Positions 20,650 through 48,980 of a stretch of DNA of 64,000 nucleotides are shown piece by piece (within the stretch, counting starts at the first letter, position 1; every line of letters starts with the position of its first letter). Location of the stretch: NCBI GenBank assembly GCA_050303855.1, contig JBNLCO010000010.1:124093-188092 (forward strand), in the 5' to 3' direction. The translations under genes and the position numbers were made by a program. The stretch comes from Candidatus Pacearchaeota archaeon (GTDB taxonomy: Archaea; Nanobdellota; Nanobdellia; Pacearchaeales; GW2011-AR1). The notes beneath the pieces were generated by a model, which had not been told where the DNA came from, made no database searches, and saw nothing but the letters and a program-made list of their open reading frames with translations.

Positions 20650-21636
20650 ATGGAACCCTTAATTGCAATAACAATTTTTGCGAGTTTTTTTTGCTCATTT
20701 TTGATAACACCCCTTTGGATAAGGAAAGCCAAGTCTTTAGGGTTAACAGGTAAAGATATTCACAAGAAAAAATCTGAAGAGGTAGCAGAAGGGGGAGGAG
20801 TAGGTATCTTGTTTGGATTTACAATAGGCGTTTTACTTTATGTTGCAATAAATACGTTCTACTTTAACAATACTACCAAACTTACAGAAATATTTGCTTT
20901 ACTTTGTGTTATATTCATAGGGTCAATTGTAGGAATAGTTGATGATTTGACTGGATGGAAAAAGGGGTTGAGTAGGAAGATAAGAATTGCGATAGTTGTA
21001 TTTGCTGCAATTCCTTTAATGGTTATAAACGCGGGGGAATCTTCTATACTTGGAATAAATCTGGGCATATTCTTCCCATTGATAGTTATACCTCTTGGGA
21101 TTGTTGGGGCGACAACAGTTTACAACACTCTAGCTGGATACAATGGTCTTGAAACTTCGCAAGGTATGCTTTTACTTGGAGCTTTGGCTTATATTACATA
21201 CATTACGGGAAACCCTTGGTTAAGTGTTGTTGCATTGTGTATGGTTGCTGCTCTTCTTGCATTCTACTTTTTCAATATGAATCCTGCTAAAATCTTCCCA
21301 GGAGATATTACAACATACTCAATTGGGGCTCTATTTGGGGGGATTGCTATAATTGGAAATGTAGAAAAAATAGCTTTGTTCTTTTTCATACCCTATATAT
21401 TTGAGATCATATTAAAGATCAGAGGTAAATTGGAAAAGGAGAGTTTTGGTAAATTAAACCAAGATGGAGAAAGTCTTGATTTGAGGTATAATAAGATATA
21501 TGGTCTTGAACATCTTGCTATAAAAATATTAAAGAAAGTCAAGAAATCTGGAAAAGCATACGAAAACGAAGTGGTCTGGTTGATAAATGGTTTCCAATTA
21601 TTAATAATTATTCTTGGACTTTTGATATTCTTTTAA
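20650..21636 (+). CDS. polyprenyl/dolichyl-phosphate HexNAc-1-phosphate transferase (MraY/WecA/AglH superfamily, Pfam Glycos_transf_4)
   Basis: 328 aa polytopic protein with ...GSIVGIVDDLTGW...TVYNTLAGYNGLETSQG...NPAKIFPGDITTYSIGA... Confidence 0.8.
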   Translation: MEPLIAITIFASFFCSFLITPLWIRKAKSLGLTGKDIHKKKSEEVAEGGGVGILFGFTIGVLLYVAINTFYFNNTTKLTEIFALLCVIFIGSIVGIVDDLTGWKKGLSRKIRIAIVVFAAIPLMVINAGESSILGINLGIFFPLIVIPLGIVGATTVYNTLAGYNGLETSQGMLLLGALAYITYITGNPWLSVVALCMVAALLAFYFFNMNPAKIFPGDITTYSIGALFGGIAIIGNVEKIALFFFIPYIFEIILKIRGKLEKESFGKLNQDGESLDLRYNKIYGLEHLAIKILKKVKKSGKAYENEVVWLINGFQLLIIILGLLIFF

Positions 21637-21645
21637 TAAAAAAGG

Positions 21646-21653
21646 TTTTAAAT
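21646..21653 (+). promoter_or_regulatory. TATA-like box (TTTTAAAT) about 24 nt upstream of the aglB ATG
   Basis: Same geometry as the other promoters in the window. Confidence 0.45.
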
Positions 21654-21673
21654 GATCATTATTTATCAAGAAG

Positions 21674-24415
21674 ATGAGTGATAAAGAATTTTCCCTAAAT
21701 GTTAAGGAAATTAAGAGTAGTTACAAAAAATCTAAGCATTTCTTTATGGACAAAAGAGTACAATTAATCCTTACTGCAGTTATTTTTCTTATTATACTAA
21801 TATCTGCTTCTGTAATAAGAACCTCCAATTTGGACAATCTTAAAGACATGACTACCGGAAACTATTCTGCAGCAGATCCAGATGCTCTTTATTTCCTAAG
21901 GCTGTCCCACGTTGTTCTTGACCAAGGAAATTTAAATGGTGTTGATGCTTTAAGGGCTCCAGGTTTAAACATACCTTATCTTAAGGAGATTGCCCCTTAC
22001 ACAATTGTTGGAATTTACAAAATAGCTAGTGTGTTTAGCCAGGGGGCAGATCTTAACTTCATTGCGGTAATTTCGCCAGTAATATTCTTCATTTTGGGAC
22101 TAATTGTCTTTTTCTTTCTCTGTTATTATTTAACAAAATCAAAACTTGTTGCTTTACTTTCTTCCGCATTTTTAGCATTTTCACCTGCATATTTGTTTAG
22201 AACTATGTCTGGAGTTTTAGATCACGATTCTATAGGTATGTTGGGAATATTTGCGACACTACTCGTTTTTGCTGTAGGCTCTAAGAGATATAATAAATCA
22301 AAAAATAAAACTTTGTTGTGGGGAGGAATTTTGGGCCTATCAACAGCATTCGCATTGGGAGCATGGGCAGGAGGGGTTACATTCTTGTTTATGATTATAC
22401 CTCTTGCAATAATTGTTAATTACTTGTTTAACCTTGAAGGGAAAAAGGAGGAAAAAGAGAAACTAATTTTATTCAATATAACTTGGCTTGTTTCATATGT
22501 AATCTTCACTAGAATCATTGGATTTGCTATGTCTGATATACTTAATCGGTTGACAAATCCTTCAAGTATGTTGGTATTACTCGTCTTAGGTTTTATCGTG
22601 GTGGATTATCTTGTTGAAAGAAACATGAAGAAGTTGAAAATGATTAAAGAAGAAAATAGGGTTGCTTATTCTATTGTTGCAGCAATAATTTTGGGAATCT
22701 TATTATTGACTTTGACGGGAAACAATTTCTTCTCTATGGTCTCTCAAATATATTATAAAATCTTGAATCCTTTCGGTTACGGAGGAAGATTAGGTTCCAC
22801 CGTTTCAGAAAATGCCCAACCGTATCTAACCTCTTGGATAAGCCAAATAGGAAAGGGTCTGTTCGCTTTATTCTTTGCAGGAATGGTTCTTATGGGGTTT
22901 GATTTTTCTAAGAAGATCGGCTCTAAAAAACACCGTATTTATTTTGTTGCGTTTTGGATAATCCTTATATCAGGGATATTATTTAGTAGAATCTCTCAAG
23001 GCCATATACTAAACGGAGAAAATTTCATAAGTCAAATATTTTACATTGGAGGATTTTTATTATTCCTTATTTATTTCGTAAGACTATATTTCAAAAACAG
23101 ATTTGAGATAGACAAAGACATGATCTTGGTTTTCTCTTGGATGTTATTCATGTTAGTTCTTAGTAGGGCTGCTGCAAGAACAATATTTGTTGCAACACCC
23201 TTTGCATGTTTCGCTGCAAGCTATTTGCTTGTTGGGTTGGGAAAGAGATTGAGAAAACCTAGAGAAGATACGATGAAAATGATTCTTTGGTTAATTTTCA
23301 TAATAGGAGTTATACTTGCATTCGTTTCTTTATTTGGAAACCCTTTAACTCAGTCTCCAGGTACGTATCAAATACTTAAGAATCAGGCGTCAGGCATCGG
23401 TCAAGCAGCAAATTATCAATGGCAATACGCAATGGAGTGGGCAAGAGATAATACTGGAGAAGGAGATATTTTTGTACACTGGTGGGATTATGGGTATCTC
23501 GTCCAAACCCTAGCAAATAGAAAGACCGTTAGTGATGGAGGTCATGCTGCAGGAGATTCAGGAGACCATAATGTAGGGAGATACATCTTAACAACCCCTA
23601 ACCCTATTACTGCCTTGAGCTATATGAAGACTTGGAATGTTTCCTATTTGATAATTGATCCAACAGATCTTGGAAAATATGGAGCATATTCAAAGATTGG
23701 AAGTGATAAGGATTATGATAGATACTCAGCTCCATTTGCTTTAGCAAAAGAAGATAGTCAAACTGTTGAAACTTCTTCAGGAAACAAATTTGTTTACCAA
23801 GGAAGTAGTTTTGTTGACGGAGATATCAGCTATCAAGATATATTCATCCCTGGACCAAGCTTTACAGAATCAGGACAAGCAACTGCGAACGCATACATTA
23901 TAGGATTACTTTTAGAAACCTCCGATGTGTCGGAAGGAAGAACCGAGATAAAACAACCCCAAGCAGTATTCTACTATAAAGATAAACAATATCAAATTCC
24001 CATAAGATATGTGTATTATCAAGGAAGGATTATGGATTTCCAATCAGGTATAGAATCAACATTCGTTTTGATTCCTAAAGTAAATGAAGACTCTTTAGGG
24101 TCAATAGGCATTGATTATACAGGGGCAGGAATGTATTTATCAGAAAAAGTCTCCGATAGTCTATTTGCAAACCTTTATTTGATGGATGATCCATTCAATA
24201 AATACCCTACAATCACTCTTGCAAATTCTGAAGATGATTACGTTGTTAATGCTTTGAAACAACAGGGTGCAGAGGTTGGGGACTTTGTATATTATGGTGG
24301 TTTCAGAGGTCCTTTAAAAATTTGGAAAGTAGAATACCCTCAAGGAACTGAAACACATGATGAATTCTTGCAGTTGACTTCTAATTGGGAAGGAGAATTA
24401 GATAAATTATTTTGA
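21674..24415 (+). CDS. aglB: archaeal oligosaccharyltransferase AglB (STT3 family)
   Basis: 913 aa with a multi-TM N-terminal half and the catalytic WWDYGY motif (...IFVHWWDYGYLVQ...). Confidence 0.92.
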   Translation: MSDKEFSLNVKEIKSSYKKSKHFFMDKRVQLILTAVIFLIILISASVIRTSNLDNLKDMTTGNYSAADPDALYFLRLSHVVLDQGNLNGVDALRAPGLNIPYLKEIAPYTIVGIYKIASVFSQGADLNFIAVISPVIFFILGLIVFFFLCYYLTKSKLVALLSSAFLAFSPAYLFRTMSGVLDHDSIGMLGIFATLLVFAVGSKRYNKSKNKTLLWGGILGLSTAFALGAWAGGVTFLFMIIPLAIIVNYLFNLEGKKEEKEKLILFNITWLVSYVIFTRIIGFAMSDILNRLTNPSSMLVLLVLGFIVVDYLVERNMKKLKMIKEENRVAYSIVAAIILGILLLTLTGNNFFSMVSQIYYKILNPFGYGGRLGSTVSENAQPYLTSWISQIGKGLFALFFAGMVLMGFDFSKKIGSKKHRIYFVAFWIILISGILFSRISQGHILNGENFISQIFYIGGFLLFLIYFVRLYFKNRFEIDKDMILVFSWMLFMLVLSRAAARTIFVATPFACFAASYLLVGLGKRLRKPREDTMKMILWLIFIIGVILAFVSLFGNPLTQSPGTYQILKNQASGIGQAANYQWQYAMEWARDNTGEGDIFVHWWDYGYLVQTLANRKTVSDGGHAAGDSGDHNVGRYILTTPNPITALSYMKTWNVSYLIIDPTDLGKYGAYSKIGSDKDYDRYSAPFALAKEDSQTVETSSGNKFVYQGSSFVDGDISYQDIFIPGPSFTESGQATANAYIIGLLLETSDVSEGRTEIKQPQAVFYYKDKQYQIPIRYVYYQGRIMDFQSGIESTFVLIPKVNEDSLGSIGIDYTGAGMYLSEKVSDSLFANLYLMDDPFNKYPTITLANSEDDYVVNALKQQGAEVGDFVYYGGFRGPLKIWKVEYPQGTETHDEFLQLTSNWEGELDKLF

Positions 24416-24420
24416 GAACA

Positions 24421-25221
24421 ATGGATGGCAAAATTAAGAATAGCTTGAAAGAGAACTATGTCAAAAGAATAGCTAATAGAGTGATGAACACGCTTTATAT
24501 CTACCCTTTCTTCAAACTAAAGGGTCCTTTGAAAGGCCATACGGCAAAAATAATTAATTTGCATTACATAGAGAGGGCTCCAGAAACTCAAGTTGCGGAA
24601 ATAATTGAGAGTAAAGTAAACCTCGGAGACAAGGTAATTGATGTGGGAACACATTTTGGATACTATACCTTACTCATGGCAAAGAAGGTTGGATCGGAAG
24701 GAAAAGTCATATGTTTTGAGCCTTCTAAAGAGACAAGAAATATTCTTAGGAACAATATTAAGAAAAATAAATACCAAGATAGAACAATAATTGAGAGCAA
24801 AGGCGTTTCCAATGAAAGAAAAACTCTCCCATTTAGCGTTAGGAAATTTAGTCCAATGAATACTTTTACGATTGAGGAATATGGAAATGTCAAAAAAATT
24901 GAATGTATTGATTTAGACACTTATTGTAAAGAGAAGGATATTACCCCTTCTTTCCTAAAGATTGATGTAGAGGGTGTGGAAAAAGAAGTTATTGAAGGTA
25001 TGAAGAAGCTAATAAGAATAAGTAAACCAAAGGTTCTCCTTGAAGCTTCAAAAGAAACAGAAGGTATGGAAGAAATATTTGATATGTTTATTAAAAATGG
25101 ATACAAAGTTTACACTTGGAGAACAAGGGTTGATGAGGACTCTTGGAAAGATCTGGTTGAAATAAAAAGGCCAGGAGAAGTGATTACAAAACACATCTAC
25201 TTCGAGTATCCTCTTTTCTAG
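24421..25221 (+). CDS. FkbM-family SAM-dependent methyltransferase
   Basis: The track start at 24412 is a TTG overlapping the aglB stop; the ATG at 24421 is preferred. Motifs: ...VIDVGTHFGYYTLLMA...KVICFEPS...LKIDVEGVEKEVIEGM... Confidence 0.8.
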   Translation: MDGKIKNSLKENYVKRIANRVMNTLYIYPFFKLKGPLKGHTAKIINLHYIERAPETQVAEIIESKVNLGDKVIDVGTHFGYYTLLMAKKVGSEGKVICFEPSKETRNILRNNIKKNKYQDRTIIESKGVSNERKTLPFSVRKFSPMNTFTIEEYGNVKKIECIDLDTYCKEKDITPSFLKIDVEGVEKEVIEGMKKLIRISKPKVLLEASKETEGMEEIFDMFIKNGYKVYTWRTRVDEDSWKDLVEIKRPGEVITKHIYFEYPLF

Positions 25222-26324
25222 TTTATCGCTTTAGAATATATTTCTCTTAGAATTTCATTTCTTTTTTCTATGGAAAATTTCTCTTTTGATTCTTTTATAG
25301 CATTCTTAGACATTTTATTAAGTAGTTTTTTATTCTTTATTAGCAATGAAGTTTTCTCAACAAGATTACTTATGAACGTTTCATCCATTTCAGCATACCC
25401 TTTCCAATTTTTAGGAAGATCTATTAGAAAACCTGTTTTCCCTTCAGAAACCAATTCTGATTTTGCAAAACTATTTGTTGTTATTACAGGTAATCCGTAC
25501 GCCAATGCTTCTGGAACTGCAAAACCATAAGAATCTCCAAACCCGGGGTAAAAGAATATATCTGAAGAAGGATAAATTTCTTTGAATAACTTCTCTTGAG
25601 GAATAAGGTCCATTATTTTTATCTGTTTGTTTTTAGAATACTTATCTTTAAACTCCTTTGGAATCGGACAGAGAAATATAAATTCAACATTCTTATGATT
25701 TTTTGATAAACGATCAAAGACCTCCAAAGTTTGACGGCCCCCTTTTGCATCAAACCACCTTGCAACGAATAAAACTCTTGTTTTTTTGTGAGGTATTTTC
25801 TTAAAATTAACGGGAGGTGTTGCGAAAGGCACAATAGCCATTTTGTCTAAGATCTTTCTATTTCTATGGAATGCTTTTTCAAAAGTTTTTTTGCAATCTT
25901 CTGACCAAACCAATATTTTCTTACAATATTTACTCTCTAGCCTATTTCTTATTATTGCTTTTCCTAAGCCCTTTGTGGCAGTATTTCTACCTGCAGAAGC
26001 TAATTGATCATAAACTTCAGTATCTACCACCCATGGTTTCCTATTTAAGCTTAAACAGTGAGCACAATGAATTAGATCAAAATTTCTTGAGGTAGTAAAG
26101 GTTAAGTTAGGCAAGTGGATCAGCCTCAATAATTTCCTTATTCTATTTTTGAAAACCCTCATAGATTCGAATTTCCTTCCAGATCCAATAATTTCCATTT
26201 TCTTTGAATTCTTTTTGTAGTTAACATAACTAATATTTTTTGGAGGAAAATCAAGAATGTTTTTGTAGTATGAACTATCTGGAAATTTCCATGGATATTG
26301 CAGATGAACCTTGATTTCTTTCAT
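25218..26324 (-). CDS. GT-B fold glycosyltransferase (CAZy GT4-like)
   Basis: 368 aa, ...GFGDSYGFAVPEALAYGLPVITTNSFAKSELVSEGKTGFLI... (E-x7-E type motif). Confidence 0.8.
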   Translation of the reverse strand: MKEIKVHLQYPWKFPDSSYYKNILDFPPKNISYVNYKKNSKKMEIIGSGRKFESMRVFKNRIRKLLRLIHLPNLTFTTSRNFDLIHCAHCLSLNRKPWVVDTEVYDQLASAGRNTATKGLGKAIIRNRLESKYCKKILVWSEDCKKTFEKAFHRNRKILDKMAIVPFATPPVNFKKIPHKKTRVLFVARWFDAKGGRQTLEVFDRLSKNHKNVEFIFLCPIPKEFKDKYSKNKQIKIMDLIPQEKLFKEIYPSSDIFFYPGFGDSYGFAVPEALAYGLPVITTNSFAKSELVSEGKTGFLIDLPKNWKGYAEMDETFISNLVEKTSLLIKNKKLLNKMSKNAIKESKEKFSIEKRNEILREIYSKAIN

Positions 26325-26347
26325 ATATATTTTGCATACCAGAAGAG

Positions 26348-26362
26348 TTTATAAAATTATAA
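26348..26362. promoter_or_regulatory. single near-palindromic TATA element (TTTATAAAATTATAA) shared by divergent genes
   Basis: It is centred in the 52-nt spacer 26325-26376, about 28 nt from the minus-strand ATG (26324) and about 25 nt from the plus-strand ATG (26377). Confidence 0.45.
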
Positions 26363-26376
26363 CCTTGATAATAAGT

Positions 26377-27570
26377 ATGGTTAAGGAAGTGGACGCGGTT
26401 TACGTTGTTGCATCCAAATTGGGAAGTATTGGAATGGGTTCTGCAGCATATAGTGCTATAAAAGGTATTGATAAATCAAAAGACATATCTTATAGAATTT
26501 TCTGTAGAGGATATAATTCTAAAGTTAAAATAAATAAAAAAAATCTTATTTCTTATGGATATTTAGAATATCTTTCTTACCCTTTTCGTTTTTTGGAGAA
26601 AAAACTTAAGATAAAGATTGATTCATTCAAATGGGTAAACTATCTTTTTGGCAAAAGAATTTATAAAAATCTGCCAAAGTGTAAGATCTACCATACTTGG
26701 ATGGGGATATCTCCAGAAGCGATAAAAAAGGCAAAAAAGAACGGAGCAATATTGATTCTAGAAGCGGCAAATTCCCACCCCCTAAATTTCTTAAATCTTA
26801 TTAATGAAGAATACAAAACTTTTGATTGCGATAAATTCATTTTAGAAACTGAAAAATTTAAGAAAGATGTGGAATACATAAAATCATTTGACTATATTTC
26901 TTGCCCGTCTGATTTCGTTTATAATTCTTTTTTGGAAGAAGGCTTTGCAAAAGAAAAACTAATAAAGATTAACTATGGGGTTGATGTGGACAAATTTTCT
27001 CCTTCTAGAAGAAAGAAAGATAAGAAATTTCGGGTGTTATTTGTGGGATCAATACAAATGAGAAAAGGAATTCCTTATTTACTAAAAGCGTGGGAAGAAT
27101 TGAATTTAAAAGATTCTGAACTAGTTGTTGTAGGAAGTGTTTATCCTGAAGCTGTTCAAATTATTAAGAAATATTTAAAAAACCCTTCAATAAAATTCTG
27201 CGGTTTTAACCCTGATTTGAGGGAATACTATTCAAATGCGGATGTTTTTGTATTTCCTTCTATTGAAGAGGGTTCTGCTTTAGTTAATTATGAGGCTATG
27301 GCTTCAGGTTTACCATTAATCACAACATTTAATTCAGGAAGTGTTGCAAGAGACGGAAAGGAGGGATTTATTATACCTATAAGAAATACAGAGAAGTTAA
27401 AAGAAAAAATAAAATTTATGCATGACAACCCTAAAAAACGTATTCAAATGGGCAAAAATGCTAGAAAAAGAATCGAAGAATTTACTTGGGACATATACGG
27501 AAAGAAGTTATCAAATCTTTATCGAGATCTCCTGAAGAAATCAAAATATACTTCTCTTACAATTATTTAA
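26377..27570 (+). CDS. GT-B fold glycosyltransferase (CAZy GT4-like)
   Basis: The track start at 26311 is a TTG overlapping the divergent gene. The ATG at 26377 gives MVKEVDAVYVVASKLGSIGMG...; ...PSIEEGSALVNYEAMASGLPLITT... Confidence 0.8.
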   Translation: MVKEVDAVYVVASKLGSIGMGSAAYSAIKGIDKSKDISYRIFCRGYNSKVKINKKNLISYGYLEYLSYPFRFLEKKLKIKIDSFKWVNYLFGKRIYKNLPKCKIYHTWMGISPEAIKKAKKNGAILILEAANSHPLNFLNLINEEYKTFDCDKFILETEKFKKDVEYIKSFDYISCPSDFVYNSFLEEGFAKEKLIKINYGVDVDKFSPSRRKKDKKFRVLFVGSIQMRKGIPYLLKAWEELNLKDSELVVVGSVYPEAVQIIKKYLKNPSIKFCGFNPDLREYYSNADVFVFPSIEEGSALVNYEAMASGLPLITTFNSGSVARDGKEGFIIPIRNTEKLKEKIKFMHDNPKKRIQMGKNARKRIEEFTWDIYGKKLSNLYRDLLKKSKYTSLTII

Positions 27571-27589
27571 GAATAATAATGTTTATTAA

Positions 27590-28612
27590 ATGTCATTTTT
27601 TGAGGTTCTTATGGATTTAACAAATGAATATTTGAATAAAAAAGTATTGATTACAGGCGGTGGCGGCTTTATTGGAAGCAACCTTGCAATAAAATTAGTA
27701 GAATTAGGCGCAGAAGTTTCGGTAATGGATTCGAAATTAAAGCCTTATGGGTTTAATTTGTTTAATCTTGATCCAGTGTTGGATAAAATAAATATAGATT
27801 ATTCGGATATAAGGGATAGAAATGCTGTTGAAAGGAATATTGCTGGACAAGATATAATCTTTAATTTGGCTGCACAGGTAGGTGAAAAAGTAGGAGAGGA
27901 AAATCCTTTTTTAGACTGGGACATAAATGTTAGAGGGCACATGGAAGTATTAAATGCATGCAAAAACAAAAATAAAGAAGCAAGAATAATATTTCCAGGT
28001 TCAAGGTTACAATATGGTAAGACAAATGGGGCAGAGATAATTTCTGAAAGCCACCCCATGAACCCCTTAACTAATTATGCCAGAAACAAAGTCGTGGGGG
28101 AAGAAATGTACCAAAAACTTAACAAAGAGGGTTTAGAAACGGTAACATTTAGAATTGCTAATCCTTTCGGTCCTCGTGCATCAATTAATAATCCTGGTTA
28201 TTGTATTGTCAATTGGTTTATTGGTAGGGCCTTGGATGGAAAAGATTTACCCATTTATGGAGAAGGGTCTCAGGCAAGAGATTATATTTTTATAGAAGAT
28301 TTAACAGATGCTATGGCAATCGCAGGAGTCCATAAAAATTCTCCAGGAAACACTTACAATTTAGGGTCAGGCCAGAAGACTTTATTCAAAGATATGGCTG
28401 AGAAAATAGTTGCACTTTCAGAAAATAATTATTCAAAAATAAATTTTGTTGAATGGCCAAAAGATGCAAAAGAAAGAGAGACTGGAAATTTTGTCGCAGA
28501 TATCTCAAAGATAGAAAGAGAATTGGGTTGGAAGCCTAAGTATAGTTTAGAAGAGGGTCTGAAAAGAACAATTGAATTTTATAGAGAAAATAAGAACAAT
28601 TATATTGGATAA
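27590..28612 (+). CDS. NAD-dependent nucleotide-sugar epimerase/dehydratase (extended SDR)
   Basis: Contains VLITGGGGFIGSNL...; a YxxxK region. The start could instead be the Met at 27611. Confidence 0.8.
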   Translation: MSFFEVLMDLTNEYLNKKVLITGGGGFIGSNLAIKLVELGAEVSVMDSKLKPYGFNLFNLDPVLDKINIDYSDIRDRNAVERNIAGQDIIFNLAAQVGEKVGEENPFLDWDINVRGHMEVLNACKNKNKEARIIFPGSRLQYGKTNGAEIISESHPMNPLTNYARNKVVGEEMYQKLNKEGLETVTFRIANPFGPRASINNPGYCIVNWFIGRALDGKDLPIYGEGSQARDYIFIEDLTDAMAIAGVHKNSPGNTYNLGSGQKTLFKDMAEKIVALSENNYSKINFVEWPKDAKERETGNFVADISKIERELGWKPKYSLEEGLKRTIEFYRENKNNYIG

Positions 28613-28694
28613 AATCACGAGAATATTTATAAAATAGAAAAAAATTCTAGATGAATGAGGAATAATTTTATTACATTTTGTAGGAGGTTATTGG

Positions 28695-29279: not shown

Positions 29280-29305
29280 AAAGAAAAACAAAGTTTTAGG
29301 AAGGT

Positions 29306-32002: not shown

Positions 32003-32033
32003 GGCAATTTAGGGTAACCTAGGACATAAATTC

Positions 32034-34416: not shown

Positions 34417-34438
34417 ATAACCCCAATTTTTATTTAAT

Positions 34439-38304: not shown

Positions 38305-38310
38305 AAAAAT

Positions 38311-41440: not shown

Positions 41441-41441
41441 A

Positions 41442-42314
41442 ATGAATAATAATAAATCCAAGAAATTTGATTTGAATACTCCTGTTTTATTTTTAGTATT
41501 TAATCGATTAAATTCTACAAAAAAAGTTTTTGAAGAAATTAAGAAAGCTAAGCCAAAAAAAATATTCATAGCTGCAGATGGGCCTCGGAATCAAGAAGAA
41601 AAATCTAAGACAGATTCTGTTAGAGAATATATTATAAAAAACATTAAATGGAAATGTCAGGTCAAAACTCTTTTTCGGGAAAAAAACCTTGGTTGCAAAT
41701 ATGCAGTATCTTCCGCGATTGATTGGTTCTTCAAAAATGTTGAAAGAGGGATTATATTAGAGGATGATTGTTTGCCTAACCAAAGTTTCTTTAGATTTTG
41801 TCAAGAAATGCTTGAAAAATACAGGGATAACGAGAAAATAATGCATGTTTCAGGGACCAATATTGAAGAAGTCTCAAAAATTCCAGAGAGTTATTTCCTC
41901 TCAAGATGCACCAACGTTTGGGGATGGGCTACATGGAGAAGAGCTTGGAAAGATTATGATGTTGAAATGAGAAAATGGCCAATTTGGAAAATAAAAATTC
42001 TTGGTCTGATGAAAAATTATGGACTATTTAACAAAATAAAATCTTGGAGGTTGTATGAATTAACTTATAGAAATAAGATAAATACGTGGGACTACCAATG
42101 GGATTTCTTATGTAGAATAAAAAAAGGACTAAGCATTGTTCCAAAGGTTAATTTGATAACCAATCTCGGTTTTATTGAAGGAACCCATACAGTCAATTAT
42201 CAAAAAAATGAAAAAACATTAAAGAGGAGAGAGCTAAAATTCCCTTTAGAATCCAGAAAAATCAATATTTTGGAAGAATATCAGAAGAAATATTTTAGAT
42301 TCTTTGGGAAATAA
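41442..42314 (+). CDS. GT-A-fold nucleotide-diphospho-sugar transferase-like protein
   Basis: The ATG at 41442 (TAA-A-ATG junction) is preferred over the track start at 41409. Contains ...TPVLFLVFNRLNSTKKVFEEI...IILEDDCLP... (DxD-like). Confidence 0.55.
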   Translation: MNNNKSKKFDLNTPVLFLVFNRLNSTKKVFEEIKKAKPKKIFIAADGPRNQEEKSKTDSVREYIIKNIKWKCQVKTLFREKNLGCKYAVSSAIDWFFKNVERGIILEDDCLPNQSFFRFCQEMLEKYRDNEKIMHVSGTNIEEVSKIPESYFLSRCTNVWGWATWRRAWKDYDVEMRKWPIWKIKILGLMKNYGLFNKIKSWRLYELTYRNKINTWDYQWDFLCRIKKGLSIVPKVNLITNLGFIEGTHTVNYQKNEKTLKRRELKFPLESRKINILEEYQKKYFRFFGK

Positions 42315-42351
42315 GGAATATTTTTAAAAAGTGTATGGAATTGGTTAATCA

Positions 42352-43005
42352 ATGGTCGAAAAGCTTAGGGGAGATTATTCACTCCATACTTTCAAAAAAG
42401 AAATTTTTAGAAGAGTTCCAAGAAATTCTAAGGTTTTGGAAGTTGGATGTAATTTTGGTCTTTTAGGAAAAGCCCTTAAAGATAAAAAAGAATGTACTGT
42501 TTACGGTATAGAGATTTATGAGCCTGCTCTGAAGAAGGCTAAAGAGAATCTTGATTTAGCAAAGAAAGTAGATTTGGAAGATTATTCTTTACCATTTAAG
42601 GAGAAATTTGATGTAATAATCTTTGAAGATGTTCTCGAGCATATACGATACCCAGAAGTTACACTTAAATTATATAGGGATATGCTTACCCCAAAAGGAA
42701 AAATCATCATATCTCTTCCAAATGTTGCAAACATAAAAATTAGATTTAAACTTTTATTTGGAAAATGGGACTATGAAGATGAAGGGATACTAGACAAAAG
42801 TCATTTTAAATTTTATACAAGAAAAACTTCTCTTCTTCTCCTAAGAAATGCAGGCTACTCTGCAAAAATAGTAGACTTTACTCCAGGTTTTAGTTTTATA
42901 TTTTTTAGGTTTTACCCCTTATTAAAGAGAATAAGGAAGGTTCTATGTTCAATAAACCCAAAATTATTTTCACAACAGTTTATCCTAGAAGGAAAATTAA
43001 GATGA
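42352..43005 (+). CDS. class I SAM-dependent methyltransferase
   Basis: Contains ...KVLEVGCNFGLLGKAL...IIFEDVLEHI... Confidence 0.8.
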   Translation: MVEKLRGDYSLHTFKKEIFRRVPRNSKVLEVGCNFGLLGKALKDKKECTVYGIEIYEPALKKAKENLDLAKKVDLEDYSLPFKEKFDVIIFEDVLEHIRYPEVTLKLYRDMLTPKGKIIISLPNVANIKIRFKLLFGKWDYEDEGILDKSHFKFYTRKTSLLLLRNAGYSAKIVDFTPGFSFIFFRFYPLLKRIRKVLCSINPKLFSQQFILEGKLR

Positions 43006-43886
43006 AATCCAAACCATTTGTAAATATTGTATTGCTAAATTTAAACAATTATTTGGATACAGTAGAATGTTTGGATTCGATTAAAAATATAGAATATAAG
43101 AAATGGGGCATAACGCTTTTAGATAATGGATCTACAGACAATTCTTTTGATAAGTTGAAGAAGAAATATGGAAAGAACAAGAAAATAAAATTCATGTCAA
43201 ACAAAACAAACTTAGGATTTGCTAAAGCAAACAATCAGGCTATGAAAAAGGACCTATTTGACTCTGATTATTTTCTTTTGTTAAATAATGATACAATTGT
43301 TAAGAGAGATTTTTTAACAAAACTTGTTCATGAAGAAAAAGATCTAATTTCTCCTTTAATTTACAACTACTATTCTAAGAAAGAATTGAGTAGAAACGAT
43401 TTTCCAGGAAAATTCAATCTTTTTATTGGAGGGGGGAGAGCAATCAACCCTGTGAGAGATAAAACAACCAAGGTAGATTATGCTTCAGGGTGTTGTTGGT
43501 TAATAAAGAAGTCATTATTCAAAGAAACAAACGGGTTTAACGAGGAATATTTTGCATATAATGAGGAAGTTGAGTGGGCGTATAGGTTGAGAAAATCAGG
43601 CTATCAATTTTACTTGTCCGGCCATTCAAAGATCTGGCACAAAGGGGCAAAAACCTCTTCTAAAATATCAGGTTTCAAAATGAAATTTATGAACCGAAAT
43701 ATAATCTGGTTTGAAAAAAAATATGCCGGATGGAAATATCCTATTTTCCTAATATATTTATTTTTATATAGGGTTCCAAAGAACATTATTAAGATTATCG
43801 TCTCGAGGAAAGAAGTTGTTAAAAACATAAAGAGTTTTTTTTCAGGTCTTGGAGAAGGTTTATTTTCAAAAGAGGTAAATCAATAA
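43002..43886 (+). CDS. GT2-family glycosyltransferase
   Basis: The ATG at 43002 (ATGA overlap) gives MKSKPFVNIVLLNLNNYLDTVECLDSI...LLDNGSTDNS...LLLNNDTIV... Confidence 0.8.
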   Translation: MKSKPFVNIVLLNLNNYLDTVECLDSIKNIEYKKWGITLLDNGSTDNSFDKLKKKYGKNKKIKFMSNKTNLGFAKANNQAMKKDLFDSDYFLLLNNDTIVKRDFLTKLVHEEKDLISPLIYNYYSKKELSRNDFPGKFNLFIGGGRAINPVRDKTTKVDYASGCCWLIKKSLFKETNGFNEEYFAYNEEVEWAYRLRKSGYQFYLSGHSKIWHKGAKTSSKISGFKMKFMNRNIIWFEKKYAGWKYPIFLIYLFLYRVPKNIIKIIVSRKEVVKNIKSFFSGLGEGLFSKEVNQ

Positions 43887-43910
43887 AAACCCTTTTTTAC
43901 TGAAGAAAGT

Positions 43911-45716
43911 ATGTGTGGAATAAACGGATTTAATTTTTTAGACAAAAAAACTCTAAGATCTATGAATGGGTCTCTGAGTCATAGGGGCCCTGACGGATCA
44001 GGAGAATTCTTTGATACAAGGGGCAAAGTTTCACTCGGGCATCTAAGACTTTCTATTATTGACTTATCTAAAAAAGGATCTCAGCCAATGACTTATACCC
44101 ACAAAGGGAAGAAGGTAGTTATTGTATTTAATGGGGAAATCTATAATTTTATGGAAATAAAAGAAGATCTCTTGAAAAAAGGACATAGGTTTAAATCAAA
44201 TTCGGATACGGAGATTATAACTGCAAGTTATTTGGAATGGGGAAAGGAATGTGTAAAGAAGTTCAACGGTATGTGGGCTTTTTGTATCTATGATCCTCAA
44301 AAAGAAATCTTGTTCTTATCCAGAGACCGAATTGGAAAAAAGCCAATTTACTATTACTTTGATAAGAAGAAATTTATTTTTTCATCAGAAATAAAGGGTA
44401 TATTGGAACATAAAGTAAAGAAAAAAATAAATCCAGAGTCATTGGATCTTTATTTCTCTCTAGGATTCATCCCTGCTCCTTATTCAATTTATGAGAATAT
44501 ATTTAAGCTAGAGCAAAGACAATCAGTGATATTTGATTTGAACAAGAAAAAACTTACAAAAGAATATTATTATCACTGGCCCGAATATTCACCAAAGAGA
44601 AATAAAGATAAGAATATCGAAGAAATAAAGAATCTTCTGAGGGACTCGGTTAAGAGGAGAATGATTTCTGATGTCCCTTTAGGCGCTTTCCTTTCTGGAG
44701 GTCTCGATAGCTCGACAATAGTTAACTTTGCAAAGAAACTAAACCCAAACATAAATACTTATTCAATTGGATTTGAAGGCAAATATGATGAAACCCAAAA
44801 CATAAACCAAATAGTTAAAAAATTCAAGACAAAACACCACCATAAATATTATCACGAATCTGATTTCAAAAAAGGTTTAAAGAAAATATTTTATTACTAT
44901 GATGAGCCTTTTTCGGATCCTTCCATGTTTCCAACTATATTTCTTTCAAGGTTTGCTCGTCAAAAAATCACAGTATCTCTTAGCGGAGATGGAGGGGATG
45001 AAATTTTTGGAGGTTATCCAAGGTACAAAAAAGCAAAACAACTTGAGAAATTAATGAAAATCCCAAGATTTTTAAGAAAAATTGTTTTACATCTCCCCCT
45101 GCCTTATTCTCTCAAAGAAGGAATCAAATTAAGTTTGAATAAAAAGGATTTGTTCTATTCTGAAGCAAGAAGTGATTTCTATAAACCATTCGTTACTAAG
45201 AATCTGCTTCAAGAAAAATTAGCATCGTGTCTTAAAAGAACAAAAGGCAACCTTGTAGAGGCAGTTAGGCTGATGGACATTGAATTTTATACTCTTCCGG
45301 ATAATTTCTTAACTAAGGTAGACCGAGCTTCTATGGCCAATGGATTAGAGATTAGATGTCCTTTTTTAGATTACAAAATTATAGAATACTCTATGAAAAT
45401 TCCAACAAAATATAGGGTTTCATTATTTAGAGATAAAATTCTTTTTAAGAAAATTATAAAGAATTTCTTGCCCAAAAAGATTATCTCACAAAAAAAGAAA
45501 GGATTTACTCCTCCAATAAATGATTGGATTTCTCGAAAAGAGTACGGAGATACACTCAACAAAATCATATCTGAATTGGAAAAAAATAAGGTGTTGTCTG
45601 GAGATTGGATCAATTTTTATAAAAAAAGGATACTGGATAGAAACTCTCTTGTTGAAAATAACTATAAAATAAGACTTTATTTGTTCTATGAATGGTATAA
45701 ACTTTGGATTAAATAG
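43911..45716 (+). CDS. asnB: asparagine synthase (glutamine-hydrolysing) family amidotransferase
   Basis: N-terminal nucleophile MCGI..., ...GHLRLSIIDLS...; PP-loop ...FLSGGLDSS... Confidence 0.85.
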   Translation: MCGINGFNFLDKKTLRSMNGSLSHRGPDGSGEFFDTRGKVSLGHLRLSIIDLSKKGSQPMTYTHKGKKVVIVFNGEIYNFMEIKEDLLKKGHRFKSNSDTEIITASYLEWGKECVKKFNGMWAFCIYDPQKEILFLSRDRIGKKPIYYYFDKKKFIFSSEIKGILEHKVKKKINPESLDLYFSLGFIPAPYSIYENIFKLEQRQSVIFDLNKKKLTKEYYYHWPEYSPKRNKDKNIEEIKNLLRDSVKRRMISDVPLGAFLSGGLDSSTIVNFAKKLNPNINTYSIGFEGKYDETQNINQIVKKFKTKHHHKYYHESDFKKGLKKIFYYYDEPFSDPSMFPTIFLSRFARQKITVSLSGDGGDEIFGGYPRYKKAKQLEKLMKIPRFLRKIVLHLPLPYSLKEGIKLSLNKKDLFYSEARSDFYKPFVTKNLLQEKLASCLKRTKGNLVEAVRLMDIEFYTLPDNFLTKVDRASMANGLEIRCPFLDYKIIEYSMKIPTKYRVSLFRDKILFKKIIKNFLPKKIISQKKKGFTPPINDWISRKEYGDTLNKIISELEKNKVLSGDWINFYKKRILDRNSLVENNYKIRLYLFYEWYKLWIK

Positions 45717-46821
45717 TTTCAAATATTTTTATAAACCTTTTAGAGAATTTTTTTAATTCAAATTCCTTTATGAATTTTTTTCTTCCCGTAAGACCCATTT
45801 TTTTCCTTTTGTTGAAATTCTTTAACTTTAAAACAGCCTCCGCTATTTCTTCGGGTTTATTTTCCTTTAGAACGAATCCTGTTTTTTCATCATCAATTAT
45901 TGAGGGTATGGTTGCTATTCCATTTGCAACAACAGGGATCCCAAACATCATCCCTTCAATTATAACCCTTCCAAAAGTCTCCAAGGGATATTCTGTTGGA
46001 AATATTATAATATCAGACTTACTTAGGACCATGTTTTTTTCCTCTCCTGATTTTTTTCCTAGGTAAGAGATGTTCTCTTGTAGATTGTGTGATGTGGCAA
46101 AATTCTTGAATAAATTGAATTCGTTTTTTCCAGGAAAAGCGCCAACAAAAGCACAATTAAATTTTAATCCAGATTTTTTTAATAAAACACAAGATTGAAG
46201 TAGTTTCATCCATCCTTTGGAGATATCCATATTTGATAAAAAAAGAAGGTCAAGTTTTCGTTTTGAACTTTTTTTGTTTATAAGTTTACTTAGTTCTTTT
46301 TCGGATACCACGTTCTCAATTGCGTTAGGAAGTAAAATTATGTTCTCTCTAGATATTGAACCGTGTAGATCTTTGATAAGTTCTTCTCCTAACAGAATGA
46401 TTTTTTGGTTTTTAATCATCTTTGATAATTTTCGCTTAAACGATTTTTTTCCCCAATCGTTATCAAGAATCCTACTCCTTAGATGAAAAATAATCTTTCC
46501 CGCATAATTCTTCTTTATTTGTTTCCAGAATAAATAATCTCTCTTGAAACCCCAGGAAGAAGTTGCAGGGACAAAATATATTACGTCTGGGTTAAATTTC
46601 TTTAAAGTCTTTTTAATCATAGATCTTACCTTAAAAAAACCCCTTATTTTTTCGATATTGAATTTTCCTATATCAGATATTTTTTTAGAATAGTTTAGAC
46701 GAATGTTTTCTACATCAAATTTTCTAGAATCATTTAATATCTTAAGGCACATCTCGCTAGAAAGTGCACTCCCGTAATTAGGGGGAGGTAACGGACTTAT
46801 GAACAAGATTCTCTTTTTCAT
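45709..46821 (-). CDS. GT-B fold glycosyltransferase (GT4/GT1-like)
   Basis: Contains ...FPTEYPLETFGRVIIEGMMFGIPVVANGIATIPSIIDDEKTGFVL... Confidence 0.75.
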   Translation of the reverse strand: MKKRILFISPLPPPNYGSALSSEMCLKILNDSRKFDVENIRLNYSKKISDIGKFNIEKIRGFFKVRSMIKKTLKKFNPDVIYFVPATSSWGFKRDYLFWKQIKKNYAGKIIFHLRSRILDNDWGKKSFKRKLSKMIKNQKIILLGEELIKDLHGSISRENIILLPNAIENVVSEKELSKLINKKSSKRKLDLLFLSNMDISKGWMKLLQSCVLLKKSGLKFNCAFVGAFPGKNEFNLFKNFATSHNLQENISYLGKKSGEEKNMVLSKSDIIIFPTEYPLETFGRVIIEGMMFGIPVVANGIATIPSIIDDEKTGFVLKENKPEEIAEAVLKLKNFNKRKKMGLTGRKKFIKEFELKKFSKRFIKIFETI

Positions 46822-47549
46822 TTTATCAAGGTTGTGTGTTTAAGGAGGTATTTATTTGCCATAAAACTTCGTTTCACTTTTTTCCAAGTATGTCTGAAAT
46901 CGGTTATTAACCTATAGAACCATTCCAAACCAATAGATTGGAAAAACGTTGGAGATTGTTTTTTGTTCCCTTTTGCATAATCAAAGAATGCACCGACATT
47001 AAAGAAAAAAGACACATTTACTTTTTCTGATAAATCGTTAGATAAAATTTCCTGTTTGGGGTTTCCAATTGCAATCCAAACATAATCTGTCTTTATTTTT
47101 TTTATCTTTTTTACTAATTCACTGTCATCAAATTTCTCTTTTTTTAGTTGAGGAAGCCCGTAGTAAAAACAACTTGTTTTTTTTAATAAAGGGTATTTTT
47201 CAACAATGTTTTCTATATCTTCTTCTGAAAAATTTCCAATAAATAAATGTCTTTTTCCTTTTAGAATAGCCTCATTTTTCATAAAAGAATCTGAGAAATC
47301 AGGACCCTTCAATCTTTTTACGGGTTTTAGAAATTTGAAGGATAATATAATGGAGAGGATAAAACCATCAACAAAGTTATAATTTTTGTCTTTTAATATA
47401 TGTTCTCTAAAAATTTTGTGATTTCTGAACAAATATACAGTGTGAGAATTTACAAAATTAAAAATAGAATTTTTTGGGAATTCATTCTGAGAGATTCTTT
47501 CAAATAAACCATTAATTGACGTTTCTGTTAAACCTAATGATTCTTTCAT
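46818..47549 (-). CDS. WecB/TagA/CpsF-family (GT26) glycosyltransferase
   Basis: Contains ...IAIGNPKQEIL...VGAFFDYAKGNKKQSPTFFQSIGLEWFYRLITDFRHTWKK... Confidence 0.8.
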   Translation of the reverse strand: MKESLGLTETSINGLFERISQNEFPKNSIFNFVNSHTVYLFRNHKIFREHILKDKNYNFVDGFILSIILSFKFLKPVKRLKGPDFSDSFMKNEAILKGKRHLFIGNFSEEDIENIVEKYPLLKKTSCFYYGLPQLKKEKFDDSELVKKIKKIKTDYVWIAIGNPKQEILSNDLSEKVNVSFFFNVGAFFDYAKGNKKQSPTFFQSIGLEWFYRLITDFRHTWKKVKRSFMANKYLLKHTTLIK

Positions 47550-47585
47550 GTAAATTTAAGAAATAAGCCCATTAAAAGGGTTTTG

Positions 47586-48980
47586 CTACCCTCTATTTCT
47601 TCTCCGAGAATAAATTATACCCACAAAATAAATTAGTCTGCTTGCTATCGTAGCGAAACAAGCTCCAAGTACTGCTTGAAACATTCCAGGGGGACCAAAG
47701 AAGCCATGATTTAAACCATAAGTTATTCCGAAATAGTTAAACCCAATATTAAAAATTGTACTTACGATTAGAAGCTTTGCAATTACACTTGTTTTCTTTT
47801 GTGAAATCATATAGTTATCGTATATTCCTGAAATCGGAAGTAAGAAAATTATAGCCGCTAGAAGTTTTAGGATAGGAACGGCTGTCAGATATTCTGAACC
47901 ATAAGCAATTTTAACAACATAATAAGCGATAAAATAAGTTATTATTGCAGATAAAAATGCGATTAGGAAAGTTATATTTCTAGATTTCTTAAATAATCTT
48001 TCTAGAGATCTACCTTCAAGTTTAGCAAATAAAGGGAATAGTGCTGCAGCAGTAAAACCGATTATTGCTGTGGCAGAACCCACCAAACTAAATGCTGCCC
48101 CATAATATGCTATAAATTCTTCTGAAACAAAATGTCCAAGCATAAGAGTATCAATATATCCAAAAAACACTCCCGAAAGGGCTGTGACCGTTAAAGGGAG
48201 AAGGAATTTCTTTACTTCTTTTACTTCTTGTTTATCTAATTTTCCAGCTTTCCCTTTTACGAAAGAGACTTTCTTCCTTGCCATGAGGGCAAATATGAAG
48301 AGACTAATTGCATAACAAATCGTTAAAGAAAGTAAAACAAGTGCTACAACGGTTCCATTTGATAAACTTGTCTTTAGCAAGAACAAAATAGTCAAAGGAA
48401 CAATTGTCAATCTTAGGGTCTGAAATATTATTTCCTTTACAAGAGGCATCTTGAAATTATTTGTTGCTTTAAAAGACTGCTCAAAGAAATTTAGGAATCC
48501 TACAATTGGTATATAAAGGCCTCCTACCAGCAAAGCATAGAATATTGGTTTGTTATAATATCCATTTGCAACAAAATAAGCACTTGCTAGGAGAACTAAG
48601 GAGCACACTGTGGTTAAAACAAATTTCCATCTTAATAAGGTTCTGAAATATTTTTTAGCTTTTTCTAGATCTTTTCTTCCAAGAACTTTAGAAATAAACG
48701 TGACAACGCCTGTTGATATCCCAAAATCAGAAAATGCAGAAAACAAAACAATTGTGGATAGTGCAAGTGAATAAAGGCCCATTCTCTCTGGCATAAGTAG
48801 TCTTGCAACGATTATTGTGAAAAAAAGTGATCCAAACTTAATTGTCAAATTTTCTGCTAATTGGTAACTAGAATTCTTTATAGCTTGTCCAGTGTTTCCT
48901 GAAAAATCTCTCTTCTTAAAACGCCTGAAAACATTTCTCGCATCTCCTTCTTCCTTTTCTAAAAAATCATCCATGAACAA
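47586..48980 (-). CDS. MOP-superfamily oligosaccharide flippase (Wzx-like polysaccharide biosynthesis protein)
   Basis: 464 aa with a 12-14-TM-like profile; position at the head of the minus-strand GT sub-operon. Confidence 0.7.
   Translation of the reverse strand: MFMDDFLEKEEGDARNVFRRFKKRDFSGNTGQAIKNSSYQLAENLTIKFGSLFFTIIVARLLMPERMGLYSLALSTIVLFSAFSDFGISTGVVTFISKVLGRKDLEKAKKYFRTLLRWKFVLTTVCSLVLLASAYFVANGYYNKPIFYALLVGGLYIPIVGFLNFFEQSFKATNNFKMPLVKEIIFQTLRLTIVPLTILFLLKTSLSNGTVVALVLLSLTICYAISLFIFALMARKKVSFVKGKAGKLDKQEVKEVKKFLLPLTVTALSGVFFGYIDTLMLGHFVSEEFIAYYGAAFSLVGSATAIIGFTAAALFPLFAKLEGRSLERLFKKSRNITFLIAFLSAIITYFIAYYVVKIAYGSEYLTAVPILKLLAAIIFLLPISGIYDNYMISQKKTSVIAKLLIVSTIFNIGFNYFGITYGLNHGFFGPPGMFQAVLGACFATIASRLIYFVGIIYSRRRNRG

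Follow-up and report, generated by a model that had tools for sequence, protein, structure and literature searches.

Which glycan is built by the gene island at positions 20650 to 48980 of a 64,000-nucleotide stretch of Candidatus Pacearchaeota archaeon DNA (contig JBNLCO010000010.1; the whole stretch is hereafter the window), and from what kind of sugar? The island is headed by genes for an AglH-like initiating phosphosugar transferase and for the oligosaccharyltransferase AglB. Its content indicates that it is probably an AglB-dependent N-glycosylation (agl) locus of a Nanoarchaeota-type DPANN archaeon, equipped with a module for a branched heptose.

The bounds of the island are exact, as an earlier note on this DNA had proposed: it extends from the start of the AglH-like open reading frame (ORF) at 20650 to the start of the minus-strand Wzx-like ORF at 48980. 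Within these 28,331 bp lie 25 non-overlapping ORFs of 194 to 913 aa, with 98% of the sequence coding and therefore no space for further genes. The earlier count of about 27 genes is thus too high, and the NCBI gene calls (GCA_050302495.1, contig JBNLBP010000001.1) also give 25; the island takes up 10.6% of that 268,280-bp contig. Pfam, NCBIfam and structure comparison yielded a glycan-related assignment for all 25 genes, and database annotation, which had been named as the way to refute the glycan reading, moved none of them to a non-glycan function. As regards the host, every source-named protein among 124 AglB homologues comes from Nanoarchaeota, Nanoarchaeia or Pacearchaeota, and the earlier inference of a DPANN-like organism is therefore reasonable.

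Is the product attached to protein? The AglH-like protein, a polytopic member of the PF00953 family (MraY/WecA/GPT; 20650-21636, plus strand; Pfam Glycos_transf_4, 99.5 bits), directly precedes AglB, an STT3-family protein of 913 aa (21674-24415, plus; Pfam STT3 and STT3-PglB_core) that carries the catalytic motif WWDYG at residues 603-607. Both assignments of the earlier note are thereby confirmed, the HexNAc-1-phosphate specificity of the first enzyme being a prediction. An initiating transferase, seven glycosyltransferases and a Wzx-like protein are clustered with aglB within 25 kb. This arrangement resembles the agl clusters of Haloferax volcanii, Methanococcus and Sulfolobus, where the oligosaccharyltransferase also lies with an initiating transferase, glycosyltransferases, sugar-modifying enzymes, methyltransferases and a flippase candidate, in a species-specific combination.

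The same genes could be read differently, as a locus for a capsule- or O-antigen-like polysaccharide or a lipoglycan without protein attachment, AglB being a mere neighbor. A Wzx-type flippase, a PF00953 transferase and many glycosyltransferases also mark bacterial Wzx/Wzy loci, and the layout of conserved flanks around a variable cargo, described below, resembles that of O-antigen loci. However, no Pfam family of Wzy-like polymerases, chain-length regulators or ABC exporters was found among the island proteins, and multiple hydrophobic segments are confined to AglH (8), AglB (14) and Wzx (9), no other island protein having more than one. These features favour a defined oligosaccharide over a polymer. 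Moreover, AglH directly upstream of AglB heads the cargo in every relative examined. A polysaccharide detached from protein is thus very unlikely, and N-glycosylation through AglB remains the preferred interpretation.

Regarding the sugar itself, comparison of the enzymes points to GDP-heptose as the most likely scaffold. A GmhA-like sedoheptulose-7-phosphate isomerase (28695-29279, plus; TIGR00441 gmhA) is followed by a short-chain dehydrogenase/reductase (SDR; 29306-30286, plus) whose top match in the PDB is 7US5, the GDP-D-glycero-D-manno-heptose 4,6-dehydratase of Campylobacter, at 300 bits. The same protein reaches at most 145 bits against GDP-mannose dehydratases and misses the gmd cut-off (159 against 415), and it holds the catalytic motifs S125-x-E127 (SSSEVYG) and Y151xxxK155. 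It is nearer to GDP-heptose 4,6-dehydratase than to GDP-mannose dehydratase, and the former activity is predicted. Activation of the sugar would be the task of a 681-aa fusion (39395-41440, plus) of an N-terminal HddC-like guanylyltransferase and a C-terminal HddA-like GHMP heptose-7-phosphate kinase; residues 3-222 match HddC best (6JQ8/5XHW, 138 bits) and residues 343-677 match HddA best (4N3O, 212 bits). Three more extended SDRs are present. Two of them are GDP-fucose-synthase-like: the first (35133-36044, minus; an epimerase and/or 4-reductase) scores 148.8 against the GDPFucSynFcl cut-off of 500 and matches GDP-L-fucose synthases best in the PDB (106 bits), and the second (36082-37062, minus) gives 147 bits in NCBIfam GDPFucSynFcl and 127 bits to GDP-L-fucose synthase structures. 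As for the Cys/His pair that we take to be catalytic in GDP-fucose synthases, the first protein has the Cys and not the His, and the second has neither. The third, an extended SDR (SDR1; 27590-28612, plus; Pfam Epimerase, 150.9 bits), is a candidate nucleotide-sugar epimerase, dehydratase or decarboxylase, with best PDB matches of the UDP-glucose 4-epimerase and UDP-glucuronic acid decarboxylase types at about 110 bits. The canonical GDP-heptose pathway has been described, as has the Campylobacter route through a 4,6-dehydratase, a pyridoxal phosphate (PLP)-dependent C3-dehydratase, an epimerase and a reductase (PMC10680097, PMC10440746).

Several observations speak against this interpretation. 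The GmhA-like protein lies just below its cut-off (201.3 against 209.45 bits), and both parts of the fusion stay below theirs in NCBIfam (HddA 246 against 600, HddC 197 against 300). The second PDB match of the dehydratase is a GDP-6-deoxy-4-hexulose (RMD-type) reductase, at 230 bits, and the HddC-like domain resembles mannose-1-phosphate guanylyltransferases too, with 172 bits to their model and 134 to their structures. A GmhB-type (HAD-IIIA) 7-phosphatase was not found in the 64-kb window. More generally, all substrates, the order of the steps and the attachment to protein are predicted from gene content. The RMD-type match and the guanylyltransferase likeness therefore leave room for a GDP-hexose scaffold: the deoxy-sugar module might start from GDP-mannose and lead to 6-deoxy or 3,6-dideoxy hexoses, perhaps branched ones, that resemble colitose, fucose or rhamnose, with GmhA and the GHMP kinase serving otherwise. 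The presence in the island of a GT10 fucosyltransferase-family enzyme and of two GDP-fucose-synthase-like SDRs would agree with such a product. Nevertheless, the score of the dehydratase against the heptose enzyme is twice that against any GDP-mannose dehydratase, and the fused kinase matches HddA best. A GmhA-like protein is present here, and a sister island in one of the relatives compared below (L108) has both GmhA and GmhB: its GmhA homologue, 48% identical, passes the gmhA cut-off at 212 bits, and its GmhB-like HAD protein scores 176.3 against a cut-off of 178. In Campylobacter jejuni, the GmhB gene likewise lies outside the cluster (PMC10680097). Taken together, GDP-mannose is an unlikely starting point, and we favour GDP-heptose.

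The heptose would also be deoxygenated at C3. A DegT-family PLP/PMP (pyridoxamine phosphate) enzyme (37174-38304, plus) matches the sugar 3-dehydratases E1 (3BCX, the best PDB match) and ColD (2GMS, 149 bits). The residue that corresponds to the catalytic His of wild-type E1 (3BCX) is His185, in SFYVAHIVSCGDGG; aminotransferases hold Lys at this position, as does the mutant E1 of 3BB8, and the His is kept in the DegT counterparts of L003/L004, L009/L108, L106 and L109. Since the His takes the place of the cofactor-binding Lys, the protein is assigned to the ColD/E1 type of 3-dehydratases, and a role as an aminotransferase yielding amino sugars was rejected in view of His185. Around 30 residues of E1 (segment 250-280) have no counterpart in the DegT protein, which has seven residues there, and the island protein is therefore more ColD-like; this segment is presumably the Fe-S cluster-binding insert of the E1/RfbH subtype, which needs the E3 reductase. 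C. jejuni makes 3,6-dideoxyheptoses by exactly this order of steps, in which a 4,6-dehydratase and then a PLP-dependent C3-dehydratase act on GDP-heptose (PMC10440746).

The likeness in enzyme logic to the capsule GDP-6-deoxy- and GDP-3,6-dideoxy-heptose pathway of C. jejuni extends over the GmhA-, HddA- and HddC-like proteins, the 4,6-dehydratase, the PLP C3-dehydratase and the SDR reductases (PMC10440746, PMC10680097). In contrast to that pathway, HddC and HddA are fused in the island, Fcl-like SDRs replace the cupin-type epimerase, a thiamine diphosphate (ThDP)-dependent branching enzyme is added, and the product would enter an AglB-dependent N-glycan and not a capsule.

The added enzyme (32062-33849, plus) belongs to the acetolactate synthase (ALS) superfamily and is predicted to be a YerE-like carboligase that joins a 2-oxoacid onto a 4-keto sugar. 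Its best PDB match is 8RPH (311 bits), the YerE-like enzyme JanthE, ahead of 5AHK (273 bits), which we take to be PpYerE, and of plant acetohydroxyacid synthase (241 bits). It contains all three ALS-type domains and misses every listed ALS cut-off (TIGR00118, for instance, at 365 against 538), and acetolactate synthase (IlvB) was therefore rejected as its identity. YerE-like enzymes transfer the acyl group from a 2-oxoacid onto the C4 position of the 3,6-dideoxy-4-keto sugar that E1 makes, and YerF then reduces the side chain; in the case of erwiniose, an aldolase supplies a hydroxylated 2-oxoacid donor (PMC9306805, PMC12247030). A His-type DegT enzyme beside a ThDP enzyme thus follows the E1-plus-YerE logic of yersiniose biosynthesis (PMC9306805).

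Is this pairing peculiar to the window? An alignment of the ThDP enzyme was scanned over one genome per species of the GTDB, with 80 loci kept, and the DegT-family gene nearest each ThDP homologue was compared at the His185 position by tblastn. Across all loci, 65 DegT matches were compared, some 55 of which came from the 80-locus scan. The His was found in 62 of the 65, and the pairing of 3-dehydratase and ThDP family is therefore general. The ThDP homologues split sharply into a tight clade with at least 57% identity and all others with at most 41%. The tight clade comprises Nanoarchaeota, Saccharibacteria, Parcubacteria, Nitrospira, Pelagibacteraceae, Prochlorococcus, Oligoflexia and marine metagenome contigs, and the distant group includes Mycobacterium, Clostridia and methanogens. 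Between this archaeon and bacteria (Nitrospira, SAR11, Prochlorococcus and the candidate phyla radiation) the clade (loci L014-L031, L011-L013, L109 and L110) is 57-68% identical, and mean column identity in a 10-sequence alignment is 73%. Such unusually high conservation, combined with a patchy distribution, suggests that the clade may have moved between domains.

Members of the tight clade also share their surroundings. An HddA-like GHMP kinase lies within 10 kb in 11 of 21 tight-clade loci and in none of 63 distant ones (p = 2e-8; p = 5e-5 once related genomes are collapsed). PanB, the 3-methyl-2-oxobutanoate hydroxymethyltransferase family, is found within the same distance in 5 of 21 against 0 of 63 (p = 7e-4). 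In the window, PanB (38311-39168, minus) passes both PanB cut-offs (305 against 272, 253 against 207). A PanB gene abuts or overlaps the orthologous ThDP gene in L011, L012/13, L017, L109 and L110, another lies inside the L108 island, and the PanBs that were checked (L011, L012 and L108) meet the PanB cut-offs as well. Given this recurrent partnership, the island PanB is not a stray coenzyme A (CoA) gene. By analogy with the ErwI aldolase, which serves ErwE, we infer that PanB may provide a hydroxymethylated 2-oxoacid donor. A B12-binding radical-SAM (S-adenosylmethionine) gene adjoins the PanB-ThDP pair in L011 (7060-8562), L012 (11836-13365) and L109 (8081-9697), and none is present in the window island.

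Two further points count against our interpretation as a whole: PanB and the AsnB-type amidotransferase meet the cut-offs of ordinary housekeeping enzymes, and a P-loop kinase and a HAD phosphatase are not accounted for by it. It might be asked, then, whether the ThDP enzyme, PanB and AsnB are housekeeping genes embedded by chance, serving as acetolactate synthase, as PanB of pantothenate and CoA synthesis and as asparagine synthetase, respectively. PanB is indeed 50-55% identical to ordinary bacterial PanBs, AsnB exceeds the asparagine synthase cut-off, and the ThDP enzyme has the ALS domain set. On the other hand, the ThDP enzyme has YerE-like proteins as its best solved relatives and fails the ALS cut-offs; Pfam and NCBIfam gave no match to ilvN, ilvC, ilvD, panC or panE among the island genes; in unrelated bacteria, sugar clusters hold PanB beside the ThDP orthologue, at the frequencies given above; and the DegT neighbors of the ThDP homologues are nearly always His-type dehydratases. 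Chance embedding is therefore very unlikely indeed, and a dedicated branching module is the better explanation.

The remaining genes of the module travel with the ThDP enzyme. An AAA_33/KTI12-like P-loop kinase (33850-34479, minus; Pfam AAA_33, 64 bits) has PSTK (27 bits) and another kinase (23 bits) as its sole PDB matches; it shares a block with a ThDP enzyme in L009, L110 and L111, and lies about 5 kb from one in L109. The HAD-IA phosphatase (31346-32002, plus; Pfam HAD_2) has homologues in the same block as the kinase and a ThDP enzyme in L009, L110 and L111. This HAD protein was considered as the missing GmhB, and that assignment was rejected as its primary reading: it is of the HAD-IA type, not canonical GmhB, and it accompanies the ThDP/kinase module in L110 and L111. 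The separate GmhB-type gene of L108 is further evidence against it. A classical short-chain reductase (34439-35128, minus; Pfam adh_short, 131 bits) is a candidate for the side-chain ketoreductase, the role of YerF, and has homologues beside the ThDP gene in L009 (63% identity) and L110. L110 has homologues of all three around its ThDP gene, with 51% identity for the P-loop kinase, 44% for the HAD protein and 50% for the short-chain reductase.

In comparison with the yersiniose and erwiniose pathways (E1, YerE/ErwE, YerF and ErwI; PMC9306805, PMC12247030), the island has in common the His-type 3-dehydratase, the YerE-like ThDP enzyme, a reductase and an enzyme that would make a hydroxylated 2-oxoacid, which is PanB here and the ErwI aldolase there. 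It differs in that the sugar would be GDP- and not CDP-linked and probably a heptose, that the 3-dehydratase is ColD-like and lacks the E1 insert, that the ThDP enzyme falls in a tight clade of its own, tied to GHMP kinases and PanB, that an additional P-loop kinase and HAD phosphatase are present, and that the host is an archaeon.

These findings allow us to propose how the glycan may be made. GmhA would isomerise sedoheptulose-7-phosphate, and the HddC-HddA fusion would phosphorylate the product and activate it with GDP. The dehydratase at 29306-30286 would then act on GDP-heptose at C4/C6, and the His-type DegT enzyme would remove the oxygen at C3 to give GDP-3,6-dideoxy-4-keto-heptose. From this intermediate, two routes can be envisaged: the two Fcl-like SDRs could reduce or epimerise it to a dideoxyheptose, or the YerE-like ThDP enzyme could add a carbon branch at C4, with subsequent reduction of the side chain by the short-chain reductase. 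The GT10 enzyme would be the likely transferase of the GDP-linked product. In parallel, the AglH-like enzyme would start a lipid-linked oligosaccharide, seven soluble glycosyltransferases (three GT4, GT2, GT10, GT26 and a GnT-I-like GT-A) would extend it, two methyltransferases and the AsnB-type amidotransferase would decorate it, the Wzx-like protein would flip it over the membrane and AglB would move it to Asn residues of surface proteins. The earlier prediction of deoxy, branched and methylated or amidated sugars agrees with this gene content, through the 4,6-dehydratase and the His-type 3-dehydratase, the YerE-like enzyme, and the two methyltransferases with AsnB, respectively. That note had left six genes un-itemised (GmhA, the HAD hydrolase, the ThDP enzyme, the DegT-type protein, PanB and the HddC-HddA fusion); it had missed the likely GDP-heptose scaffold, the type of the DegT dehydratase, the place of PanB in a sugar module and the variable-cargo slot found across the lineage.

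A more specific and clearly speculative proposal, to which we attach a modest chance, is that the module represents an undescribed pathway to a higher-carbon, C4-branched dideoxyheptose. A hydroxymethylated 2-oxoacid made by PanB (ketopantoate or a smaller analogue) would be ligated by the ThDP clade onto GDP-3,6-dideoxy-4-keto-heptose, the kinase and HAD pair would handle a phosphorylated intermediate, and the slot that houses these genes would be a swappable cassette.

Does the locus vary between relatives? Six relatives share the left flank, which runs over ribosomal proteins, SecY, an EMC3-like protein, prefoldin, IF-2B and SpoIIM to AglH and AglB; in L005, the IF-2B-prefoldin block is rearranged. 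AglB of these six is 45-70% identical to that of the window. At the right flank, SecF-SecD (58-66% identical) followed by varying nucleotide-sugar or Wzx genes was seen in all eight metagenome contigs that reach past SecD, and the SecDF flank is present in L108 too. L009 and L108 are parts of a single ENA contig (ERZ4200981 NODE_23), on which a second island can be followed in full, from AglH through to SecD, over about 31 kb. Its gene set is nearly that of the window, with PanB and GmhA placed differently, a GmhB-like gene, a cytidylyltransferase-like gene and an additional SDR as extras, and without FkbM. AglB of this island is only 41% identical to that of the window, while its cargo proteins reach 55-85%. 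In L003, AglB is 70% identical, yet part of the cargo is replaced. The histories of AglB and of the cargo thus appear decoupled, by fast evolution of AglB or by cassette exchange.

Close relatives locate the change more narrowly. L003 and L111, whose SecY proteins are 87% and 86% identical to that of the window, retain GT4 (a), GT4 (b), SDR1, the heptose dehydratase (87-90%) and GT10, and differ after GT10. The window and L009 fill this slot with the HAD protein, the YerE-like ThDP enzyme, kinase and reductase. In L003, a ThDP protein resembling pyruvate dehydrogenase E1 (E1_dh-type; 20453-21652) directly precedes the His-type DegT gene, and in L111 the kinase and HAD protein are again present, there beside a split transketolase (20125-21323) and an aldo-keto reductase. 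Decarboxylase-type (YerE-like), alpha-ketoacid-dehydrogenase-type and transketolase-type ThDP superfamilies have all been tied to C-branched sugars (PMC12247030). Three types of ThDP enzyme in the same slot look like non-orthologous replacement of the sugar-branching enzyme. The more distant L005, L007 and L112 have radical-SAM enzymes, further methyltransferases and different glycosyltransferases instead. As for variation between strains, just one near-identical contig was found (Logan SRR36185838), and it matches at 100% over 20,016 nucleotides; it therefore represents the same population and is uninformative on strain variability. A separate feature of L003, the closest relative, is a ParE/MazE toxin-antitoxin pair at 5873-6381, between the EMC3-like gene and prefoldin in an otherwise syntenic left flank.

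The remaining genes would extend and decorate the glycan. Where the earlier note had claimed at least eight glycosyltransferases, seven soluble ones are present, and nine are reached by counting AglB and AglH; its single GT2, GT10 and GT26 enzymes stand, and its three to four GT4 enzymes are three. GT4 (a) (25218-26324, minus; Pfam Glycos_transf_1, 67.9 bits) is kept beside AglB in relatives at 39-80% identity. GT4 (b) (26311-27570, plus; 115.7 bits to the same family) is 59-69% identical in relatives, and GT4 (c) (45709-46821, minus) scores 97.6 bits. The GT10 enzyme (30279-31349, plus; Pfam Glyco_transf_10, 88.9 bits), 50-72% identical in relatives, is of the fucosyltransferase family, which uses GDP-sugars. 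The GT26 protein (WecG/TagA/CpsF; 46818-47549, minus) gives 98 bits to Glyco_tran_WecG and 72.6 against the TIGR00696 cut-off of 69. GT2 (42945-43886, plus; Pfam Glycos_transf_2, 63.4 bits) has a weak rhamnosyltransferase-subfamily match. From its longest start at 42945, this ORF overlaps by 61 nucleotides the preceding methyltransferase ORF, which ends at 43005, and the actual GT2 start probably lies downstream.

The seventh glycosyltransferase, a protein of 301 aa (41409-42314, plus), has no Pfam match (none at E <= 10) and no PDB sequence match: a single-sequence search of the PDB returned nothing meaningful, and a profile search gave only E = 0.4-1.1, with GT13 enzymes throughout. An AlphaFold model built from a 60-sequence alignment reached a predicted local distance difference test (pLDDT) score of 91.4, the single-sequence model being useless at 34.6, and Foldseek matched it to POMGnT1 (1.7e-10) and GnT-I (1e-9), both GT13 enzymes of the GT-A fold, at a template-modelling (TM) score of about 0.5. 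The acidic, DXD-type motif E118-D119-D120 is invariant in the 60 aligned sequences. On the basis of the model, the protein is a GT-A fold glycosyltransferase whose closest fold is that of eukaryotic GT13 GnT-I/POMGnT1, in agreement with the GT-A gene of the earlier note. Its family has 11,423 cluster representatives at 50% clustering, with members fused to GT4, GT9, methyltransferase, sulfotransferase and AlgX domains; a profile-profile comparison with the family of the island GT2 was not significant (probability 0.8%).

Pfam and NCBIfam also bore out the other enzyme classes of the earlier note: two methyltransferases, five SDR-type enzymes (four extended and one classical), the AsnB-type amidotransferase, the AAA_33 P-loop kinase and the Wzx-like flippase. 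One methyltransferase is of the FkbM family (24412-25221, plus; Pfam Methyltransf_21, 82 bits; TIGR01444, 97 bits, over the cut-off), and the other is a class I S-adenosylmethionine methyltransferase (42352-43005, plus; Pfam Methyltransf_23, 64 bits). The AsnB-type glutamine amidotransferase (43911-45716, plus; Pfam Asn_synthase, 268 bits; TIGR01536, 468.8 against a cut-off of 267) has a 70%-identical copy within the L108 island. The Wzx/MOP-family flippase candidate (47586-48980, minus; Pfam Polysacc_synt, 77.7 bits, and MatE) closes the island.

Upstream of the island lie an archaeal ribosomal-protein operon and genes for SecY, an EMC3/YidC-like protein, prefoldin, an IF-2B-family protein and a SpoIIM-like membrane protein; downstream lie SecD, SecF, three tRNAs and a 5S rRNA. 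One tRNA, at window positions 51444-51531, is 88 nucleotides long and scores 57.5 bits in Rfam; ARAGORN assigned no amino acid to it and called an unusual anticodon of two bases, and it possibly contains an intron. The 5S rRNA (53264-53379; 64 bits) stands alone, with no 16S or 23S rRNA nearby within the window. Further downstream, in a run of minus-strand ORFs (58526-63479), four start with a hydrophobic, signal-like segment, followed soon by a Cys (lipobox-like) in two of them. The three that were scanned (59534-60397, 61371-62561 and 62589-63479) have no Pfam match, and sequon density in the run is unremarkable, at 0.4-1.4 per 100 aa; these ORFs are possible surface proteins.

How much of this is new? 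AglB-centred agl clusters and DPANN N-glycosylation genes are already known, and heptose is a component of the Thermoplasma N-glycan (PMC11407970). In contrast to the archaeal agl clusters mentioned above, the present locus belongs to a DPANN lineage, is fixed between a ribosomal-protein/SecY block and SecDF, and combines heptose activation with ThDP branching, which are not listed for archaeal N-glycans in that source (PMC11407970). A limited literature search found no description of a YerE-like branching module, of PanB-ThDP pairing or of a swappable ThDP slot in archaeal N-glycosylation loci, nor of YerE-like enzymes in archaea or of agl islands in Nanoarchaeota. The branched-heptose module is unusual and apparently undescribed. 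The locus may also be set beside bacterial O-antigen and capsule loci, which in E. coli combine conserved flanks (such as galF and gnd) with a variable cargo. Fixed chromosomal anchors and modular swapping of sugar and glycosyltransferase genes between close relatives are common to both, whereas here AglH-AglB and SecDF serve as the anchors, a polymerase is lacking and AglB would pass the glycan to a protein Asn.

The cell surface of DPANN archaea, which live in attachment to other cells, is where they meet host and virus. No description of a DPANN N-glycan was found in the literature searched, and the locus offers a testable prediction of one: it would contain a deoxygenated, probably C-branched sugar derived from a heptose, along with methyl and amide groups. 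Across the lineage, sugar chemistry is exchanged at a single fixed place on the chromosome, where thiamine enzymes of three families occupy one position in different relatives. The recurrence of the tight ThDP clade with PanB and GHMP kinase points to a widespread, uncharacterised sugar-branching pathway, of relevance to the enzymology of YerE-like catalysts. If the cassette proposal is true, with E1-type or split-transketolase enzymes in sister lineages, close relatives would therefore show differently branched N-glycan sugars, plausibly under pressure from viruses or from host recognition.

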